A stretch of 10,046 nucleotides of DNA. It comes from Candidatus Jordarchaeia archaeon. GTDB lineage: Archaea; Asgardarchaeota; Jordiarchaeia; Jordiarchaeales; Jordiarchaeaceae. Under the pieces are notes generated by a model. That model ran no database searches and had not been told where the DNA came from. It saw nothing but the letters and a program-made list of their open reading frames with translations. Position numbers and translations under genes: made by a program. The stretch lies in assembly GCA_029856435.1 (NCBI GenBank), contig JAHQXB010000153.1, positions 1 to 10,046 on the forward strand. The letters run 5' to 3'. Shown in pieces: positions 386 through 9,686 of this stretch; positions within the stretch are counted from its first letter, which is position 1; every line of letters starts with the position of its first letter.

Positions 386-501
386 GTTAATTTCAAATGT
401 ACTTGATTTATAATAAACGTCTTATAATTTCTATGTGGTTGAGGCTCGCCTCGTATTAAATAAGTATTGTAGCTCTGTCAATCTATAAAGGGATGTTATT
501 T

Positions 502-1995
502 ATGTCAAAGTGGCCATTCATTGCTGGTGACTATGTTGTTATAAACGAAAAGGCGGCCATCGCCATAGTTACATGTGGGTCTTACGATTTGCCAAAAGAG
601 TTAGCCAAATTGAGTGACAAAATTGCCATTGTGGGTTTCTGTGAGACGGAGAATAGTGGAGTAGCGAAGATTTTACAAAATTTGGCTTCAAATACAAATA
701 TTAGATTCCTCATAGTCTGCGGTGAACGTGTAGTTGGCCATGAACCGGGGCAAACTATTATTTCGCTCTATAATAATGGGATTGATGAAAATTATAGAAT
801 TATCGGAAGTGAGGGTACTATACCTGTTTTGCATCCAAATTATTTCAGGGGAGACGATCCGAATAAATTTGTTAAAAGATTTCAAAGCCAAATCGTTAAG
901 GTGGTGGATGCACGAGGAGAAACAAATGTTCAAAAATTGATGTCTATAATCAATGAACTTAATGCACAAAAAATATCTCCATTTCCTGAGGAGCCGATCC
1001 TTCCATTAACACCCAAAGTTGAATATGATTGGAGTAAAGGGATAAAGAGGTTCCAAGAAGAAAATAAAAGCTTTCTTGATAAGGGTATATCTCTATTAAA
1101 TCCCTTGATATTTACTGGAGAACTAAGAGTTTATGATATATGTGGGATTAAGATAGGCGGGCAGAGGGGGGAGTATCCCGTAGTTTTAGCTGGAACCATG
1201 TTTTATAGAGGAGATAAATTGGTGGTTAATCATAGTGAAGGCGTCTTTGATAAGACTAAGGCTGAAGATCAAATTCGGAAACAGGAGGAGAATTCTTTAA
1301 AATACGAAATTCCCTCAATGGTACACATAGTTGGAGAAACTCCTGAGGCTTTAACAAGATATCTTTTATTTGTTGCAGATATCACAGACTCACCAATAAT
1401 TCTTGATTCGCCAGTTTTGGAAGCGAGAATAGAAGCAATGGGTGTAGCTAAAGATCTGGGTTTAGAGGGTAGAGTTATATACAATTCGGTTAGCGGCGTG
1501 GATAAAAGAGAAAAGGCTATGATTGGCGAAATGGGATGTATAGAATATTCTATAGTTTTGCCCTTTGACGTAAAACTACCTTCAAGAATCAATCGGTTCA
1601 GAGAAATAATTGAATTTATGAAGGGGTTAATCATGAAGCCAATTATTGATCCTGGTGTTTCTATTCTGGGAGCAGGTTCAATAAGTGCTTTGCATGCAGC
1701 TTGGTTATTTAAGAATTGCTATGGTTATCCTGTATGTATTGGCATCCATAATCTGCAATCAAGGCTCTCTAAGAGTATCAGTGAATTAAAAAATCTGGAT
1801 TTTTCTTTTGACTACGCTCTTCCTTCCCTTTATGGAATAGATATTAATCTTTATGGTCCAATAAAAAATGCAGAGGCTATATTCAGAGAGGTGGCGGCTG
1901 TTGAAGCTGCAATTGCAGACGAGAACATAAATACAGTTGGGATTTACCCGAAGCCTCCCCATCCCTATTATGCTTTAAAACTTGGTTGTGAGTAA
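502..1995 (+). CDS. mtrA-mtrH: Fusion of an MtrA-like corrinoid-binding domain and an MtrH-like methyl-pterin methyltransferase domain; soluble, no transmembrane anchor (MtxA/MtxH-like)
   Basis: The N-terminal part matches MtrA motifs: WPFIAGDYVV, AIVGFCETENSG, SNTNIRFLIVCG, VVGHEPGQ (His codon 739-741), IIGSEGTIP. From about nt 1108 it matches MtrH: KIGGQRGEYPVVLAGTMFY, GVFDKTKAE, SPIILDS, GIHN, LYGPIKNA, and C-terminal HPYYAL. The alternative ATG is at 493; ATG 502 has AAGGGA 8 nt upstream. Confidence 0.92.
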   Translation: MSKWPFIAGDYVVINEKAAIAIVTCGSYDLPKELAKLSDKIAIVGFCETENSGVAKILQNLASNTNIRFLIVCGERVVGHEPGQTIISLYNNGIDENYRIIGSEGTIPVLHPNYFRGDDPNKFVKRFQSQIVKVVDARGETNVQKLMSIINELNAQKISPFPEEPILPLTPKVEYDWSKGIKRFQEENKSFLDKGISLLNPLIFTGELRVYDICGIKIGGQRGEYPVVLAGTMFYRGDKLVVNHSEGVFDKTKAEDQIRKQEENSLKYEIPSMVHIVGETPEALTRYLLFVADITDSPIILDSPVLEARIEAMGVAKDLGLEGRVIYNSVSGVDKREKAMIGEMGCIEYSIVLPFDVKLPSRINRFREIIEFMKGLIMKPIIDPGVSILGAGSISALHAAWLFKNCYGYPVCIGIHNLQSRLSKSISELKNLDFSFDYALPSLYGIDINLYGPIKNAEAIFREVAAVEAAIADENINTVGIYPKPPHPYYALKLGCE

Positions 1996-1996
1996 A

Positions 1997-3271
1997 ATGA
2001 GCTTCTATGGTCCTTATTTGATTCGAGCCAGAAATATAGATGTTGCTTGGAGAAGTTGCATTAACACAATCCTCGAAAAAGGAATAAAGGAGATAACTGA
2101 GGATAAAAAACAGGAAACTAGGGAAACTTTTTGTGCTACGATTCATCTAAGTGATTGGCAAAGTGGAAATTTTGTTCCAGTAAACTATATTGGGCTGAGT
2201 AAGGATACGCTCCTTGAGAGCTATATTCCCCAATATATTAGTCCTGAGAAGGGAGAACATGTATATAGCTATGGATGGGCTATGAGAAAAAGATTCACGT
2301 TTAACCAGCTGGATTACATTAAAAATCAGTTAAGTGGTGGGAAAAATGTAGCTTTTGCCCAGTTCTGGAATCCACCAACGGACATTTTAAGCACCAACCC
2401 TCCCTGTATTAACATAGTGCTTTTTCACAAATTAGGCTCAAAAATTCATTCGACTATATATATTAGAAGTAATGATATGGCCCGAGCGTATCCCGACGAT
2501 GTTGCTGGTATTTATACGGTTTTTTTAACAGAAGTTGCAAGTAGATTTGGTGGTAAAAGGGCTTTGGGCACCATAACAACAATTTCGGGGTCGGCGCACA
2601 TATATGAAACTTCAATTAATGAATTAAGACAAAGCTTTTTCGGTTCGCTACCTACCTCCAATTCTAATCCACGAATCAATAATGAGAACTTGGCTGGACC
2701 CATACTTTTAAGATCTCAAAATTTGCGTGAGGTGTTATCGGAATTAGAATACAAGTTTGCAAAGTACTCGGAGCCTCAAGAAGAAGGGCAATTTTACTTA
2801 TATCTCGGGTTTAAGTTAGAGAAAGTAGACGTTAAATTAGTAGAGCTTGAACATCAAGTAGAAGGAATTTTAAATGGAGAGGGGGAATTAGGAAAATGTC
2901 TGAGATTCTACAAAGCTAAAACGGATGAGGGGGAATCTGTTACAATCGATCAAATAAAAATGGCTAAAAGAAAATTAGAGGAATCAAAGCTGAGTAGAAG
3001 AATAGTTATTACTCCTAATAATCCTTGGGAAAAAAAATATGATTTAAACCCTCTGGTTATACAATTTTTGGTAAGGCAGGGACGGCTTTTCACATCGGCG
3101 TTTTTCGCAAACTACTCAATTGAACAAGTCCCATTGGGAATCTTTTTAATTAGAGCAATTCAAAAGGAGATACTGAATGGAAATAAAATCAGTATAGATC
3201 CTACTGCGTTCTTCTTTATGCCCTGTATAAATGACTCAAGGAGTGTAAAGTTCTCAGATATACTCAGTTAA
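1997..3271 (+). CDS. Thymidylate synthase (ThyA)/pyrimidine hydroxymethylase-family protein with two tandem TS folds; domain 1 catalytic-looking, domain 2 degenerate
   Basis: Domain 1 has YSYGWAMR, NQLDYI, FWNP, NPPC (Cys codon 2405-2407), RSND (2465-2476) and SAHIYE. Domain 2 (from about 2696) has GPILLRSQN, LGKCLRFY, IDQI, SRRIVIT and IQFLVRQGRL. ATG 1997 sits 1 nt after the upstream TAA and is preferred over the TTG at 1982 in the ORF track. Confidence 0.85.
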   Translation: MSFYGPYLIRARNIDVAWRSCINTILEKGIKEITEDKKQETRETFCATIHLSDWQSGNFVPVNYIGLSKDTLLESYIPQYISPEKGEHVYSYGWAMRKRFTFNQLDYIKNQLSGGKNVAFAQFWNPPTDILSTNPPCINIVLFHKLGSKIHSTIYIRSNDMARAYPDDVAGIYTVFLTEVASRFGGKRALGTITTISGSAHIYETSINELRQSFFGSLPTSNSNPRINNENLAGPILLRSQNLREVLSELEYKFAKYSEPQEEGQFYLYLGFKLEKVDVKLVELEHQVEGILNGEGELGKCLRFYKAKTDEGESVTIDQIKMAKRKLEESKLSRRIVITPNNPWEKKYDLNPLVIQFLVRQGRLFTSAFFANYSIEQVPLGIFLIRAIQKEILNGNKISIDPTAFFFMPCINDSRSVKFSDILS

Positions 3272-3530: not shown

Positions 3531-4262
3531 ATGTTTGCTGCTCCTGGATTGGGCTATGATCGCGCTATAACCATTTTCTCCCCAGATGGGAGGCTTTTTC
3601 AGGTGGAGTACGCAATTGAAGCCGTACGTCGAGGCACCACCGCTATTGGTGTAAGATGTAAAGAGGGCGTGGTGCTTGCAGTAGAGAAGAGGGTTTTAGC
3701 CCTTCAAGACCCCGAGAGTGTAGAAAAAATTTTTGTCATTGATGAGCATATTGGAACCGCCATCGCGGGATTAACAGCTGATGCACGAGTTCTTGTAAAT
3801 CAAGCTAGGATTCAGGCCCAAGTTAACCGTCTCACATACGATGAGCCTATTACTGTTGAAAGTTTAACCAGATACATTGGTGACACTAAACAAATGTATA
3901 CTCAGCATGCTGGCGTTAGACCGTTCGGAGTTTCCTTTCTGATAGCAGGTGTAGATGAACTGGGTCCCAAATTATTTATGACCGATCCTTCTGGGACTTA
4001 CTGGTCTTATTGGGCAGCCGCAATAGGTAGTGGTTCTCAGGCCGCTAAAGAAGTTCTGGAAAAAGAGTATAAGAAAGATATGGGGCTTGAGGATTCTATT
4101 AAACTATCTCTCAAGGCTTTAAATCAGGTGTTAGAGTCTGAACTTGATCCCTCAAAAGTTGAAGTTGCGGTGGTGGATGTTAAATCGAGAATTTTCAGGA
4201 GACTGTCCTCTAGCGAAGTTCAAAGTTATATCAATGAGGTTAGAAAGTCTGGTGGAAGTTAG
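3531..4262 (+). CDS. psmA: 20S proteasome subunit alpha
   Basis: Alpha-subunit signature [21 protein letters not shown], plus [25 protein letters not shown] and DPSG; 243 aa. Confidence 0.98.
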
Positions 4263-4273
4263 GACTGATAGTT

Positions 4274-4996
4274 ATGTCTGACATTCGGGGAGCGAAATGG
4301 GTCGATTTAGGTGATACAGTAATAGCCCGCTACGAATCCCATGGAGAAAGGTTTGAGATCCTTGTTGACCCTAACAAGGCTTGGGATTTTCGCCGCGGTA
4401 AGAATATTGATTTATCAGAGATATTGAAAAGCTTTGATATATTTGAAGACGCCCATAAAGGCCTTAAAGCATCCGAAGATAAACTGCTTAAAGTGTTTGA
4501 AACATTAGATATAAATAAAATTGCGCCTATCATACTAAAGAAAGGGTTTATACAACTCACTACTGAACAGCGCAGAGAGATGATGAACAACAAAAAATTG
4601 CAGATAATTAATATTCTTGCCCGTAACTGTATTAACCCCCAGACTGGACTCCCCCATCCTCCAGCAAGAATAGAACGCGCCATGGAGGAAGCAAAGGTTC
4701 AAATTGACTTGTGGAGAAGCCCCGAAGAGCAAGCAAAAGACATATTAAAAATACTTCAGCCAATAATACCTATAAGAATGGAACTCTTAAAACTGGCTGT
4801 CAAGTTTCCACCTGATTTTTCAGGTAAGGGATATAGCATCGTGGAACGTTTCGGAACAGTCACCAAACAAGAATGGCAAAGTGACGGCTCATGGATTGCC
4901 CAATTGGAGATTCCTGCAGGGCTTAGAGGCAAATTTGTAGAAACAATAAATAATCAAACTAAGGGTAAAGCACAAGTGACATTTATCAAAGAATAA
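4274..4996 (+). CDS. sdo1: Ribosome maturation factor SBDS/Sdo1
   Basis: [55 protein letters not shown] and IPAGL; canonical position after psmA. Confidence 0.96.
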
Positions 4997-5009
4997 AGGG
5001 GGTTTCTTT

Positions 5010-5687
5010 TTGACATTATATTTTAAAAATAGACAAATTGTAGTACCCGGCGAGTTACTCGCAGAGGGAGGTTATAAGCCTGGCGAAGGTACGTTTAGGG
5101 AAGGAAATTGTATCTACTCTTCTGTAGTAGGCTTGGTAGAGGCGAAGGGCAAAATTGTGCAAGTTGTTGCTTTTGAAGGAGCGTACATTCCAAAAGTTGG
5201 TGATGTGGTTATTGGAAAGGTAATAGATGTAAAGATGACTTCATGGAGAATTGACATAAATTCACCATACCAAGCTACAATGCATCCAGTAAACATTTTT
5301 GAAAGGCGTACGGATCCGTTGAAAGAAGACCTTCGCCGGTATTTTGATGTAGGAGATACACTGGTTGCGAAGATAATGGCATTTGATCGGACGCGGGCGC
5401 CTCTGCTTACCACAAAAGAACGGGGGCTTGGCAAACTTCAAGGAGGATACTTAGTAAATATTTTACCCACGAAGATTCCGCGTTTAATCGGGCGGAAGGG
5501 TTCAATGATAAATATGATTAAAAAGGAAACAGGGTGTCAGATTGTTATTGGTCAGAATGGTGTTGTTTGGGTTTCCGGAAAGAGTTTCGAAGACGAGGAG
5601 AGGGTTATTAAAGCTATAAGACAGATTGAGCGGGAGGCCCATACCTCTGGCTTAACTGATAGAGTAAGGGAGTTAATTCATAAGTAA
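5010..5687 (+). CDS. rrp4: Exosome RNA-binding subunit Rrp4 (S1 + KH domains)
   Basis: IVVPGELLA, YIPKVGDVVIGKV, KH motif PTKIPRLIGRKGSMI, GQNGVVW and C-terminal AHTSGLTDRV. TTG start with AGGGGG upstream. Confidence 0.96.
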   Translation: MTLYFKNRQIVVPGELLAEGGYKPGEGTFREGNCIYSSVVGLVEAKGKIVQVVAFEGAYIPKVGDVVIGKVIDVKMTSWRIDINSPYQATMHPVNIFERRTDPLKEDLRRYFDVGDTLVAKIMAFDRTRAPLLTTKERGLGKLQGGYLVNILPTKIPRLIGRKGSMINMIKKETGCQIVIGQNGVVWVSGKSFEDEERVIKAIRQIEREAHTSGLTDRVRELIHK

Positions 5688-5705
5688 ATCTTGTTGGTGG
5701 TCGTT

Positions 5706-6482
5706 ATGGAAGATTTTCATTTTCCTTCGCAGATAAAGTTACTAAATGAAGACAATTTGAGACTTGATGGAAGAAGATTGGATGAACTTCGACCCATTAA
5801 ACTAGAAGTCGGAGTTCTGGCAAGAGCAGATGGCTCTGCGTACATTGAACAGGGAAAAAGTAAGATTCTCGCAGCAGTTTATGGTCCGCGGGAATTACAC
5901 CCACGCCACCTTGCACAACCTGATGAGGCTCTACTACAGTGTATTTATAGAATGGCTACCTTTTCTGTAGAGGAAAGAAAGAGCCCAGCGCCGTCTCGGA
6001 GAGAAACAGAACTTTCAAAAGTTATAACAGAGGCTCTTGCTCCCGCAGTTTTTCTAAAATACTATCCTAGAGCGTCCATAGATGTTTATATACAAGTAAT
6101 ACAAGCCGATGGAGGTACTAGATGTTCAAGTATAACCGCCGCTTCCCTAGCCTTAGCGGACGCTGGAATTCCCTTGCGGGACTTGGTATCTGCTGTTGCC
6201 GCTGGAAAGATAGATGGTAAAATTGCTCTGGATTTAAGTGATTTGGAAGATAAGAACGGCCAGGCGGACTTGCCTGTTGCTATAATGCCTCGCAAAGGGC
6301 TAACTACACTATTACAGATGGATGGTATGATGACCAGAGAGGAATTCATCGAAGCCTACGAACTGGCTGTAAAGGGTTGCCAAAAGATTTACGAAATGCA
6401 AAGGGAAATCTTAATCCAAAAATATATTGATATCCAAAGTGAGGCTTCAGAGGAAGCAGATGAACAGGAAAATGGGGGATAA
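5706..6482 (+). CDS. rrp41: Exosome catalytic subunit Rrp41 (RNase PH fold)
   Basis: [40 protein letters not shown] and DGGTR phosphate/RNA-binding motifs, and the acidic EDKNGQAD motif are intact. ATG 5706 (GGTGGT upstream) is preferred over TTG 5691. Confidence 0.97.
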
Positions 6483-6485
6483 AAA

Positions 6486-7307
6486 ATGCCTCATAGTCTT
6501 ATCTCTGAAATTGAATCAAAGTATATTAGGTCAATTGTAGCTAGAGAAAAGAGGGTGGACGGCCGTGGATTAAGAGAGGTACGTCCGATAACTATTGAAA
6601 CGGGAGTGGTGGAGAAGGCCAGTGGCTCTGCTAGGGTAACTATTGGTAACACAAAGGTTATCGTGGGGGTAAGTGCAGAAATTGGAACCCCCTACCCCGA
6701 TACTCCCAATTCGGGTGTCGTAACTGTTGCTGCAGAGTTTATACCAATGGCTTCTCCCTATTTTGAATCAGGACCGCCCAGCGAAGAAGCTGTCGAACTT
6801 GCAAGGGTTGTCGATAGGGGTATCCGTGAATCTAAAATGGTAGATTTGGACAAACTCTGCATAATTCCCAATGAAAAGGTTTGGATTCTTTTCGTGGACA
6901 TATACATAATTGATCACGGTGGGAATCTATTTGACGCTTCTTCTCTAGCTGGCGTTTGTGCTTTAATTACCACTATGCTTCCAAAAACCGAAATTGAAAA
7001 TGGAAAGGTAAAATTGCTAAGTGAAAAAATGCCATTACCTGTGACCAATATACCAGTTTCATTGACCCTCGCAAAAATAGGTGACCAACTCTGTGTGGAT
7101 CCCATAGAAGAGGAAGAAAATGTTATGGATTGTAGAATTACCATTGTTTATGATGCGAACGGTAACCTAGTAGCTATTCAAAAAGGAGAGCGTGGAGCCC
7201 TAACCCAACAAGATATTTACAACGCCGTAGATATAGCTAGGGATATTACAAAAGAACTTAGAGAAAAATATATTTTACCAATTTTAAAGAGGCAGGAGGT
7301 CTCATAA
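6486..7307 (+). CDS. rrp42: Exosome subunit Rrp42
   Basis: RVDGRGLREVRP, KASGSARV, PYPDTPNSG, FESGPPSEEAVELARVVDRGIRES, DHGGNLFDAS and VDPIEEEE. Confidence 0.97.
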   Translation: MPHSLISEIESKYIRSIVAREKRVDGRGLREVRPITIETGVVEKASGSARVTIGNTKVIVGVSAEIGTPYPDTPNSGVVTVAAEFIPMASPYFESGPPSEEAVELARVVDRGIRESKMVDLDKLCIIPNEKVWILFVDIYIIDHGGNLFDASSLAGVCALITTMLPKTEIENGKVKLLSEKMPLPVTNIPVSLTLAKIGDQLCVDPIEEEENVMDCRITIVYDANGNLVAIQKGERGALTQQDIYNAVDIARDITKELREKYILPILKRQEVS

Positions 7308-7597
7308 TGCCGAGAACTAAGAAGGTAGGTATTACTGGTAGGTTTGGAGCAAGATATGGTACAAAGGTGAGAAAGCGTGTGAAAACTATCTTGGAGGGAC
7401 TGAGTACCTTTCATAAATGCCCCCGGTGTGCAACTAAAGCAGTTAAACGAGTGTCTACTGGAGTATGGTCATGCAGAAAATGTGGACATACCTTTACTGG
7501 TGGAGCTTATCTTCCAGAAACTCCTCTAGGCAAGGAAAAAAGACATATCATAGACACAGTTGCGTTAAGCTCGGAGAAAAATAAGCCACCACAATAA
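7307..7597 (+). CDS. rpl37ae: 50S ribosomal protein L37ae (eL43)
   Basis: RTKKVGITGRFGARYG, zinc ribbon CPRC...WSCRKC, and FTGGAY. It overlaps the rrp42 stop by 1 nt (TAATG). Confidence 0.96.
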   Translation: MPRTKKVGITGRFGARYGTKVRKRVKTILEGLSTFHKCPRCATKAVKRVSTGVWSCRKCGHTFTGGAYLPETPLGKEKRHIIDTVALSSEKNKPPQ

Positions 7598-7767
7598 ATT
7601 TTTCCTATCCTCATAAATATTTGATGCCCCTTCTAGCTTTAGTCTACATAAAAAGGATACAAAAAAGAACATTTTCTATCGAAAATAGGATATTGATTAA
7701 AAATTGTAACAATTTGAGATTACCGATATTTTAGGGCGAGGCGCAAAAAGTATTTGGAGTAAATTTA

Positions 7768-8013
7768 ATGAAATACAATGCAAAAGGCGTTATACAAATT
7801 AATTTGCCTAGGAATTTATTGGAAGTTGCTTTCAGAGCTCTTTTTCCTGAAGTTATTTCCGGTGCTAGCGAGCGTTGTATAGGTAAATTAAAAAGAGATG
7901 GTGACATTATAAGCTTAGAAATTAAGGCTGAGGATACGGTTGCGCTCAGAGCGGCTTTAAACTCGTATCTCAGATGGTTAAAAATAATTTATGACATTAA
8001 CGAACTTGTTTAG
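7768..8013 (+). CDS. pcc1: KEOPS complex subunit Pcc1
   Basis: 81 aa, with ALFPE and the C-terminal IKAEDTVALRAALNSYLRWL signature; usual position before prefoldin beta. Confidence 0.9.
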   Translation: MKYNAKGVIQINLPRNLLEVAFRALFPEVISGASERCIGKLKRDGDIISLEIKAEDTVALRAALNSYLRWLKIIYDINELV

Positions 8014-8024
8014 GAGGCGTGTAG

Positions 8025-8393
8025 TTGTCAGGAAATGAAATTCCCCCACAGGTTCAACATCAAATATCAATGCTGCAGCAATTGCAACAAAAATTGGAAA
8101 TAATTATCACTCAAAGGTCTCAATCTGAAATGCAGTTGAGGGAAACAGAACAGGCTTTAAGTGAACTTGAAAAAATTGAGCAGGGAAGCAGTGTTTACAA
8201 AATGGTTGGAACGTTACTGATAAAAACCCAACCCGAAAAGGTTAAGGAAGAACTTCGGGATAAAAAGGAAACACTTGAATTAAGGGTAAAAACTCTTCAG
8301 AGACAGGAAGAGCGTTCAAGGAAGCAGCTGGAGGAGATGCGGGCAAAGGTTCAGGAATCGCTTCAGCAACGAGGTTTAAGCCCGGCGGGCTAA
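8025..8393 (+). CDS. pfdB: Prefoldin beta subunit
   Basis: EIPPQVQHQI, coiled-coil helices flanking the VYKMVGTLLIK hairpin, and KETLELRVKTLQRQE. TTG start with AGGAGG at 8012-8017. Confidence 0.96.
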   Translation: MSGNEIPPQVQHQISMLQQLQQKLEIIITQRSQSEMQLRETEQALSELEKIEQGSSVYKMVGTLLIKTQPEKVKEELRDKKETLELRVKTLQRQEERSRKQLEEMRAKVQESLQQRGLSPAG

Positions 8394-8687: not shown

Positions 8688-9686
8688 TTGATCCTAAATA
8701 CGTTTAAAAACTTCTTCATTAATCATATTCAAAAGATTTTAATTATTTGTCACCAAAACGCAGACCCAGACGCATTGTGTAGTGCTTACGCCATAAAAAA
8801 GCTGGTCGCACACATTTTTCCAGAAATCGAATCCTTAATAGCTGCCGATGATATAAGTAAAGTCTCAAATGGGGTATTAGAGGATCTACAGGTATCTTTA
8901 GCTAAAGATATCACGATTGATATGTTTGACGCCTTTATAATCGTTGACACCAATAATATTGAACAACTAGGTTGCTACCGCTCAGTAGTAAACCTTTTAA
9001 AACCCATACTGCTCATTGACCATCACACACCCCATATATCTACAACCCAATTTACCAAGCACCTAATAATTGATGAGGCATCTACCTCAACTGCCGAAAT
9101 AGTATACAACCTTTTTAAGGAAGCGGGCATAAAACCGAGTCAGGACACTGCTACGGCTTTGCTTATGGGAATAACCTATGATAGTAAACACTTTCTTTTA
9201 GCAAACGCCTCCACCTTTAGGGCCGTCACTGATCTTATAGACGCAGGCGCGGACTACAGCGCGGTAATTGAGAGACTTAGCACTACAATGTCTAGATCAG
9301 AAAGGATGGCAAGGCTGAAGGCTATTAACAGAGCGCAAATACATGATATTAAAAATTGGTTAATTGCCATTTCACATGTAAGTTCTTATGAGGCTAGTGC
9401 CTGCAGAGCACTTATCGAGACAGGAGCAGACATAGCAATAGTGATAGCCAAAAGAAAAGAGGAAATTAGAGTAAGTGCTAGATCCACACAGAACATTTAC
9501 AAAAAAACAGGTATTCATTTGGGAAAACTTATGGAGGAACTGGGCGCCACAATTGAAGGTGTCGGTGGGGGGCACTCAACCGCCGCCGGTTTTAATGGGA
9601 AAAATAGCTATACTAAAGTTATCAAATATTTACTCAAAATAATTGAAGAAAAGTTAGAAAATGCACCACCAGGCCCTCTGGATTAA
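8688..9686 (+). CDS. DHH/DHHA1 family phosphoesterase (NrnA-like nanoRNase/pAp phosphatase or exopolyphosphatase-related)
   Basis: HQNADPDALCS, IVDT, LIDHH, STSTAEIV, GITYDS and C-terminal DHHA1 SARS...GGGHSTAAG; TTG start. Confidence 0.92.
   Translation: MILNTFKNFFINHIQKILIICHQNADPDALCSAYAIKKLVAHIFPEIESLIAADDISKVSNGVLEDLQVSLAKDITIDMFDAFIIVDTNNIEQLGCYRSVVNLLKPILLIDHHTPHISTTQFTKHLIIDEASTSTAEIVYNLFKEAGIKPSQDTATALLMGITYDSKHFLLANASTFRAVTDLIDAGADYSAVIERLSTTMSRSERMARLKAINRAQIHDIKNWLIAISHVSSYEASACRALIETGADIAIVIAKRKEEIRVSARSTQNIYKKTGIHLGKLMEELGATIEGVGGGHSTAAGFNGKNSYTKVIKYLLKIIEEKLENAPPGPLD

Follow-up and report, generated by a model that had tools for sequence, protein, structure and literature searches.

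The uracil-selecting asparagine at position 177 of Escherichia coli thymidylate synthase ThyA (229 in Lactobacillus casei) is among the best-studied specificity switches in enzymology. In enzymes of the same fold such as T4 dCMP hydroxymethylase gp42, an Asp at this site recognises the cytosine of deoxycytidine monophosphate (dCMP) and protonates N3 (PMC6400193, PMC13326640). Much less is known about the one-carbon donor of archaeal thymidylate synthases (PMC9012536). The fate of the methyl group carried by an MtrA-MtrH fusion protein (MtrAH) of Asgard archaea has been called 'uncertain', in a publication that never mentions thymidylate (PMC11291895). Here, a thyA-like gene of a two-domain type with Asp at the specificity position (D-type) is described together with the MtrA-MtrH gene upstream of it. 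Both lie in a stretch of 10,046 nucleotides from Candidatus Jordarchaeia archaeon (contig JAHQXB010000153.1 of assembly GCA_029856435.1), the whole of which was analysed and is called the window below. We hold with moderate confidence that the D-type ThyA is the only thymidylate-forming enzyme of its lineage, a remodelled ThyA that works with MtrAH and has deoxyuridine monophosphate (dUMP) as acceptor; the substrate is most likely dUMP and the product deoxythymidine monophosphate (dTMP).

Asp at the pyrimidine-specificity position

By fold, score and catalytic residues the D-type gene product, P0001, is a member of the ThyA superfamily. Residues are numbered according to P0001 (429 amino acids); numbers for a form of 424 amino acids are lower by 5. 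Residues 1-225 make up the thymidylate synthase family region. Pfam PF00303 matched residues 93-217 with 43.1 bits (gathering cut-off 24.3), and NCBIfam TIGR03283 ('thy_syn_methano') scored 113.8 bits, which is under its equivalog cut-off of 174.55. C142, R162, S163, D165, H206 and Y208 were aligned to E. coli C146, R166, S167, D169, H207 and Y209 and are invariant. Two features of the dUMP-specific family (EC 2.1.1.45) were not found in P0001, namely Asn at the 177/229 position and a TIGR03283 score of equivalog level.

A preliminary description of the window had placed an Asp at the equivalent of E. coli Asn177 by a gapless alignment. This placement was borne out when P0001 was compared by phmmer with all PDB chains: codons 2465-2509, which read in frame as RSNDMARAYPDDVAG, matched the stretch RSGDMGLGVPFNIAS in thymidylate synthases of solved structure with no gap. 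In the pairing with herpesvirus thymidylate synthases ('rsndmaraypddvag' over 'rsgdmglgvpfnias'), Arg162, Ser163, Asp165 and Pro171 are identical and Asp173 stands over the Asn. The presence of Asp at the same site of T4 dCMP hydroxymethylase, stated in that description, likewise agrees with the literature, which reports it for MilA and the phage 5-hydroxy-dCMP synthases as well (PMC6400193, PMC13326640).

The Asp173 column was read in a query-anchored profile alignment of 200 relatives obtained from two large protein searches. All 46 members of a two-domain Asgard clade had Asp, and the other 154 relatives had Asn (149), Asp (four) or a gap (one). Archaeal dUMP enzymes that also carry Asp, which by the preliminary description would have spoken against its reading, were not seen; Asn was found at the 177 position in the short archaeal ThyA proteins and in fusion proteins of about 470 amino acids alike. 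The Asp clade is monophyletic (support 1.0, stem of 0.68 substitutions per site), its proteins are 387-434 amino acids long, and the names attached to them are Jord-, Frey-, Njord- and Atabeyarchaeia and 'Promethearchaeota'. The nearest database proteins, 95-97% identical, are named Candidatus Jordarchaeaceae. Ordinary thymidylate synthases among the archaeal relatives have Asn, which makes Asp173 a derived, clade-specific and strictly conserved state. The codon for Asp173 was GAT or GAC in ten loci, and the adjacent Arg and Ser codons varied over four to five synonymous forms. As this codon stays Asp while its neighbours change synonymously, the residue is held by selection and does not reflect chance or an alignment effect.

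Beyond the Asgard clade, Asp also occupies the specificity position in four distant ThyA relatives of the archaeal type (P0139, P0161, P0177 and P0190). In addition, one Asgard genome (G032) holds on contig C209 a canonical-type ThyA homologue with Asp (L005:1354-2082; RSNDLLYGLPYDV), whose open reading frame (ORF) is cut by the contig end. This genome contains a second ThyA and ThyX besides. Among candidates for dCMP modification, the homologue is a more classical one than the D-type ThyA.

Thymidylate synthesis in D-type genomes

The genome to which the window belongs (G000; 3.54 Mb, 97.8% complete) contained one PF00303 match, and ThyX was not found in it. The sample of Asgard genomes comprised 201 that were at least 80% complete; a ThyA-type gene was present in 104 of them and ThyX in 95. 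When the motif was read in the fetched loci, three types of Asgard ThyA were distinguished: (i) a short type of about 215 amino acids with Asn; (ii) a type of about 340 amino acids with Asn; (iii) the two-domain type with Asp. The latter was present in exactly 15 of the 201 genomes, which represent five GTDB families and include three single-contig assemblies (G038, G012 and G023). ThyX was found in none of these 15, and the D-type ThyA is the only thymidylate synthase candidate in its genomes, with an extra Asn paralogue just in G046 and G071. In these two genomes of one genus the extra gene is very divergent and ThyA-like, with the motif RSLDLAKK...N (L047:1523-2302 on contig C121 of G046; L048 on contig C536 of G071). 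Given its absence from G000 and the closed sister genome, the extra gene may be an accessory of mobile or viral origin. It was rejected as the 'real' synthase on account of its absence from G000, G038, G028 and G060.

Genes that make dUMP and consume dTMP were identified on either side of the step in question. In the genome of the window, TIGR02274 identified a dCTP deaminase with 148 bits (cut-off 92.8) and NF002598 an archaeal dUTPase with 172 bits (cut-off 130). The dCTP deaminase family was present in all five further D-type genomes inspected for it, and the D-type genomes examined have two or three paralogues of the dCTP deaminase/dUTPase family each. All D-type genomes but one, G000 included, have thymidylate kinase (Tmk; 14 of 15); it was not found in G060 (95% complete). 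A route at the triphosphate level, to which a loss of Tmk would have pointed, was discarded given this retention. Five genomes were searched for thymidine kinase and for a FolA-type dihydrofolate reductase, and neither was found; salvage was dismissed as a source of thymidylate on the former ground. Since dUMP is made, dTMP is consumed and a single candidate gene is present, the product of the enzyme must end up as dTMP; on this genomic reasoning dTMP would come most simply from dUMP, with the D-type ThyA filling the step between the two. It is a housekeeping gene and not a phage-like extra.

These results bear on three suggestions of the preliminary description. A side activity of the phage or antibiotic type, which it had found out of place among archaeal housekeeping genes, is not what the genome points to: the gene is the only PF00303 gene, ThyX was not found, and dCTP deaminase, dUTPase and Tmk are present. 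The automatic label 'thymidylate synthase', which had been suspected of being wrong, is probably right at the pathway level, the gene being the sole candidate; the label masks possible differences in substrate, cofactor and quaternary structure. The idea of a cytosine nucleotide as substrate survives in part. Asp does lie at the true N177 equivalent, as in the cytosine enzymes, but the accessory role that went with this idea does not hold for an enzyme whose product must reach dTMP.

The same genomic evidence makes it very improbable that the protein is a (d)CMP hydroxymethylase or methylase for a modified base in DNA, RNA or a metabolite, with thymidylate coming from elsewhere. Such an enzyme would be expected to have Asp at the N177 position. 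The equivalent of E. coli L143 is moreover polar or acidic (N139 in P0001; Asn in 31 and Asp in 15 members of the Asp clade), and the pairing of Asp with such a residue has been described for hydroxymethylating and hydroxylating homologues (PMC13326640). A polar residue at the L143 equivalent is, however, a family trait seen in the Asn-type archaeal relatives too, so the phage 'L143 acidic' rule for telling methylases from hydroxymethylases does not apply to the P0001 family and was set aside as uninformative. No other thymidylate synthase was found, nor, in the five genomes checked, a thymidine kinase, closed genomes included. In cellular genomes of five GTDB families the gene is vertically conserved, and it is adjoined by no glycosyltransferase, kinase or antibiotic genes. 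Finally, H206 and Y208 fit a deoxyribonucleotide substrate; their E. coli counterparts H207 and Y209 contact the 3'-OH of the deoxyribose in established ThyA structures.

The main rival reading, a rather unlikely one, is a true dCMP methylase, with thymidylate arising by deamination of 5-methyl-dCMP, or of 5-methyl-dCTP by a paralogue of the dCTP deaminase family. It would account for the invariance of Asp173, a known cytosine determinant, and for the dCMP and CMP enzymes among the top structural matches (see below). The two or three dCTP deaminase/dUTPase-family paralogues of these genomes would provide candidate deaminases, as would a gene of the cytidine deaminase (CDA) fold (PF00383) in G038 and G020; some deoxycytidylate deaminases accept 5-methyl-dCMP. 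Yet G000, G006 and two closed genomes, G012 and G023, yielded no CDA-fold or dCMP deaminase-type gene. With PF00383 in only two of six genomes, a dCMP deaminase route is unlikely as a general solution. A dCMP methylase would also render useless the dUMP that comes from the canonical dCTP deaminase and dUTPase, it leaves the retained thymidylate kinase to be explained, and a comparison of nine loci showed no deaminase linked to the module.

Pairing with MtrA-MtrH

In all 15 D-type genomes an MtrA-MtrH gene lies directly upstream of thyA on the same strand, and the two genes abut or overlap. In the window the MtrA-MtrH stop codon, TAA, is separated from the thyA ATG by 1 nucleotide. Full-length MtrA-MtrH orthologues (E value of 1e-158 or better) occurred in exactly these 15 genomes and in none of the other 186; the remaining hits in the 201 genomes cover the MtrH part only, with at most 42% identity. 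A third conserved neighbour, such as a deaminase, reductase or kinase gene, was not found in the nine loci compared.

PDB matches of the MtrH part were MtrH itself and MtgA, a methylcorrinoid:tetrahydrofolate methyltransferase. The MtrA part matches MtrA, in which His84 ligates cobalt (PMC4915002). The equivalent His83, the Glu of the TEN motif and the GTIP (GxIP) motif are invariant in 40 orthologues, and the pterin-domain motifs of the MtrH part are invariant as well.

The complex of MtrA-MtrH and ThyA was predicted with an interaction prediction score from aligned errors (ipSAE) of 0.92, versus 0.00 for the best of three controls; the mark applied to this score is reached by 58 of 80 solved complexes and by 2 of 110 mismatched pairs, counts that apply approximately to this prediction, which used self-made alignments. 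Three runs shared at least 98% of contacts, and the predicted local distance difference test (pLDDT) value was at least 89 for the partner. The predicted interface joins residues 215-348 and 487-490 of the MtrH domain to residues 12-28, 55-58 and 219-262 of ThyA. This model supports binding of MtrA-MtrH to the D-type ThyA.

A conventional thymidylate synthase using a methylene-pterin, in which Asp is merely tolerated and MtrAH is co-transcribed for a separate methyl-transfer job, is difficult to reconcile with this pairing and must be regarded as improbable. Tolerance as such is conceivable: Liu and Santi, working in 1993 with Asn229 mutants of L. casei, reportedly found that the residue mainly excludes dCMP and that many substitutions keep dTMP synthesis, and the classical catalytic residues of ThyA are all present in P0001. 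However, the two genes co-occur in 15 of 15 genomes and in none of the 186 others, and they abut or overlap. The predicted interface stands far above its controls, and relatives fuse an MtrA-like domain to ThyA. The invariance of Asp173, Arg168 and the acidic residue 172 points to function rather than tolerance, and no FolA that could recycle dihydropterin was found in the five genomes checked.

The fusions just mentioned are distant Asn-type relatives in which ThyA is joined to an MtrA-like domain and a DUF4346 'pterin-binding' domain. These proteins of about 470 amino acids comprise P0049-P0057 and about 100 representatives, with names of DPANN archaea and Candidate Phyla Radiation bacteria. 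One of them, P0054, also carries thymidylate kinase. As an Asn-type relative is fused to this kinase, the ThyA family ancestrally makes dTMP. The cobalt-ligating His of MtrA is replaced by Ser in several of the fusions (judged by eye), and cobamide binding by their MtrA-like domain may therefore be absent or unusual. Among genomes of family f7 (for instance G164:C59, G027:C26 and G079:C14), at least ten with the short Asn-type ThyA have a stand-alone MtrH homologue on the contig of thyA, at a conserved distance of about 18-20 kb.

In the literature searched, no publication was found in which thymidylate synthesis is connected with the D-type enzyme, with its Asp or with MtrAH. Nothing relevant was found in the literature on DUF4346, on thymidylate synthase with MtrA, or on the phage dCMP hydroxylase AfhB.

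Two ThyA halves in one chain

The AlphaFold2 (AF2) model of full-length P0001 was compact, with a pLDDT of 92.9 and a predicted template modelling score (pTM) of 0.93. Alignment of its N-domain with VIA-align to thymidylate synthase, MilA and the phage enzyme 9iqu gave Z scores of 18-22 and root mean square deviations (rmsd) of 1.8-2.7 Å over about 200 residues. PDB entry 1njc, the N229D variant with dCMP, was among the structural matches.

The C-terminal part of P0001, about 140 residues, is a second, degenerate ThyA core. By hhalign the C-domain family was matched to the short archaeal ThyA with a probability of 98.1% and an E value of 1.2e-13 over 102 columns, with SRR over SRR. Only the profile of the Asn-type short ThyA was matched; no match to the N-domain of the clade itself was obtained (probability 1.1%). 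Modelled alone by AF2, the C-domain reached a pLDDT of 87.3. In a search of 48,161 chains made without Foldseek, its top seven matches were all of the thymidylate synthase family, the best being Brucella ThyA (Z 11.7, rmsd 2.4 Å over 136 residues), and the next match had a Z score of 7.3.

In ThyA dimers an Arg-Arg pair is lent to the active site of the partner. The N-domain has GKN at the place of this pair in the alignment of the 200 relatives, the pair being lost, and the C-domain has an invariant SRR aligned to that of archaeal ThyA (Table 1). Judged from these alignments, P0001 may be a single-chain pseudo-dimer with one composite active site. The N-terminal half, with its own Arg-Arg pair lost, would hold all of the catalytic apparatus, and the fused, catalytically dead ThyA half would supply the pair.

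Proposed mechanism and its weighing

From these observations we infer a donor chemistry and a role for Asp173. ThyA and the upstream MtrA-MtrH protein would act as an obligate pair, in which the MtrH domain holds a one-carbon-bearing pterin and the MtrA domain a cobamide, and the one-carbon unit is delivered to the nucleotide bound by ThyA. MtrAH could supply this unit either by presenting the pterin or by relaying a methyl group through the cobamide. The exchange of Asn for Asp173 would belong to the remodelling of the active site, along with the invariant Arg168 and the acidic residue 172. With dUMP as substrate, Asp173 could in its protonated form mimic the Asn amide, with the acidic residue 172 raising its pKa. 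Alternatively, it may activate the pyrimidine ring more strongly, to suit a weaker methyl donor or an altered one-carbon chemistry.

A more specific version, which we offer tentatively and by analogy, is that MtrAH and the D-type ThyA together act as a cobamide-dependent thymidylate synthase, with an architecture like that of methionine synthase. In this scheme MtrH would move a methyl rather than a methylene group from methyl-tetrahydromethanopterin or methyl-tetrahydrofolate onto the MtrA-bound cobamide, from which it would pass to C5 of the nucleotide activated by the Cys of ThyA. The pterin would stay unoxidised in such a cycle, and dihydrofolate reductase would be unnecessary. Asp173, Arg168 and Asp/Glu172 would then adapt the site to the weaker methyl donor or to dCMP as acceptor. 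If true, this cobamide-dependent synthase would name both the missing acceptor of the Asgard MtrAH and the one-carbon donor of an archaeal thymidylate synthase.

Several points weigh against a remodelled dUMP enzyme. Every characterised enzyme of the thymidylate synthase fold with Asp at this position uses a cytosine nucleotide, the examples being T4 dCMP hydroxymethylase (D179), MilA, the phage 5-hydroxy-dCMP synthases and the engineered N177D and N229D dCMP methylases (PMC6400193, PMC13326640). The top structural matches of the N-domain are of this kind: 9iqu, a dCMP hydroxylase from a phage, had a Z score of 22.2 and MilA one of 20.4, with thymidylate synthase at about 19; this small margin may reflect only the compact size of the cytosine enzymes. 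We know of no precedent for Asp at this position with a uracil substrate. The argument from the pathway hole is indirect, as a deaminase or thymidylate synthase may have gone unrecognised, and the model of the complex is a prediction from self-made alignments.

A cellular organism with the cytosine-type Asp in its only enzyme of the thymidylate synthase type breaks the textbook rule, and there are two ways to account for it. In the first, a remodelled active site allows dUMP to be used with Asp; in the second, a whole group of Asgard archaea (Jord-, Frey-, Njord-, Atabeyarchaeia and relatives) obtains thymine by way of 5-methyl-cytosine nucleotides. The strict pairing of thyA and MtrAH provides a testable answer to the fate of the methyl group of the Asgard MtrAH (PMC11291895) and to the one-carbon donor of archaeal thymidylate synthases (PMC9012536). 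The D-type enzyme is best classed with the thymidylate synthases, as a variant form, and it probably supplies thymine by an undescribed route with a methyl carrier of the vitamin B12 type.

Features of the locus

The ORF at 1982-3271 on the plus strand translates into P0001 from a mechanically assigned TTG start at 1982. The gene is likely to start at the ATG at 1997, one base past the TAA of the upstream gene, which gives 424 amino acids, the length of homologues; those of 424 amino acids have the N-terminus MSFYGP. Positions of the features discussed here are collected in Table 1.

Table 1. Features of the MtrA-MtrH and D-type thyA genes, with positions in the window.
Feature	Position	Strand	Basis
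MtrA-MtrH fusion gene, corrinoid and pterin-binding methyltransferase domains	493..1995	+	Pfam MtrA (E 2e-37) and MtrH (E 6e-58); PDB matches
His83 of the MtrA domain (cobalt-ligating His84 of MtrA)	739..741	+	'vvghepgq' / 'vqghitgq' alignment to 5l8x
thyA-like gene, two-domain D-type	1997..3271	+	PF00303 43.1 bits; TIGR03283 113.8 bits; homologues
N139-P-P-C142 (catalytic Cys at 2405-2407)	2396..2407	+	Cys invariant; phmmer alignment 'tnppc' / 'malppc'
Asn139, E. coli L143-equivalent position	2396-2398	+	phmmer alignment
Motif RSNDMARAYPDDV, equivalent to E. coli R166-I178 (RSCDVFLGLPFNI)	2465..2503	+	ungapped phmmer alignment to solved thymidylate synthases
Arg168	2483-2485	+	R in 46/46 of the Asp clade; variable in Asn-type relatives
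Asp172	2495-2497	+	D or E in 46/46 of the Asp clade; variable in Asn-type relatives
Asp173 (GAT), E. coli N177 / L. casei N229 position	2498..2500	+	over Asn of PFNIA; D in 46/46 clade members
H206-I-Y208, equivalent to E. coli H207/Y209	2597..2605	+	invariant in homologue alignments
Degenerate C-terminal ThyA half-domain	2837..3268	+	no Cys, RSxD or Asn/Asp; hhalign, AF2 model
S338-R339-R340, Arg-Arg pair	2993..3001	+	invariant in 43/43; aligned to SRR of archaeal ThyA

Further downstream on the plus strand (3531-8393), the window carries a conserved run of archaeal housekeeping genes for the proteasome alpha subunit, SBDS, exosome Rrp4, Rrp41 and Rrp42, ribosomal protein L37ae and prefoldin beta. 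This run is not kept beside the thyA pair in other lineages. A gene for a DHH/DHHA1 phosphoesterase of 332 amino acids, NrnA/RecJ-like and with weak equivalog scores, follows on the same strand (8688-9686).

Comparison with known systems

The closest sequence family to the D-type ThyA is the short archaeal ThyA of the methanogen type (TIGR03283 / PF00303). Both have the fold, the PC Cys, RSxD, SAHxY and Glu48 in a compact core of about 210 residues, and both lack the long folate-binding insertions. Unlike the short archaeal ThyA, the D-type enzyme scores below the equivalog level, has Asp for Asn and an N-domain without the Arg-Arg pair, is fused to a second, dead ThyA half and has MtrAH as an obligatory neighbour.

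T4 gp42, Streptomyces MilA and the phage 5-hydroxy-dCMP synthases (9iqu / 9iqc) share with the D-type ThyA the thymidylate synthase fold and the Asp. These enzymes are homodimers of viral or antibiotic-cluster origin that exist beside a separate thymidylate synthase of the host, whereas the D-type ThyA, a putative single-chain pseudo-dimer, belongs to a cellular genome with no other member of the family, and its gene is paired with that of a corrinoid protein. Its flanking genes are housekeeping genes that differ between loci, in place of a viral or cluster context.

The engineered dCMP methylases ThyA N177D (E. coli) and N229D (L. casei) have the same Asp in a methylating ThyA site, and phage XP12 has a natural dCMP methyltransferase (EC 2.1.1.54). 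The N177D and N229D mutants have reportedly lost most of their dUMP activity, a loss that a D-type organism could not afford unless its dTMP arises via 5-methyl-dCMP. Moreover, the engineered enzymes use methylene-tetrahydrofolate as donor without a partner protein, while the D-type ThyA is paired with MtrAH.

MetH and the MtrA-H and MtgA-type systems consist, like MtrAH, of pterin-binding TIM-barrel and His-ligated corrinoid modules. By analogy with MetH, the modules could relay a methyl group to a third module that activates the substrate. To our knowledge, no described system has a ThyA-fold acceptor of a corrinoid methyl group. The acceptor proposed here would be just that, a ThyA fold with a bound pyrimidine nucleotide, and not a thiol as in the MetH-type systems.

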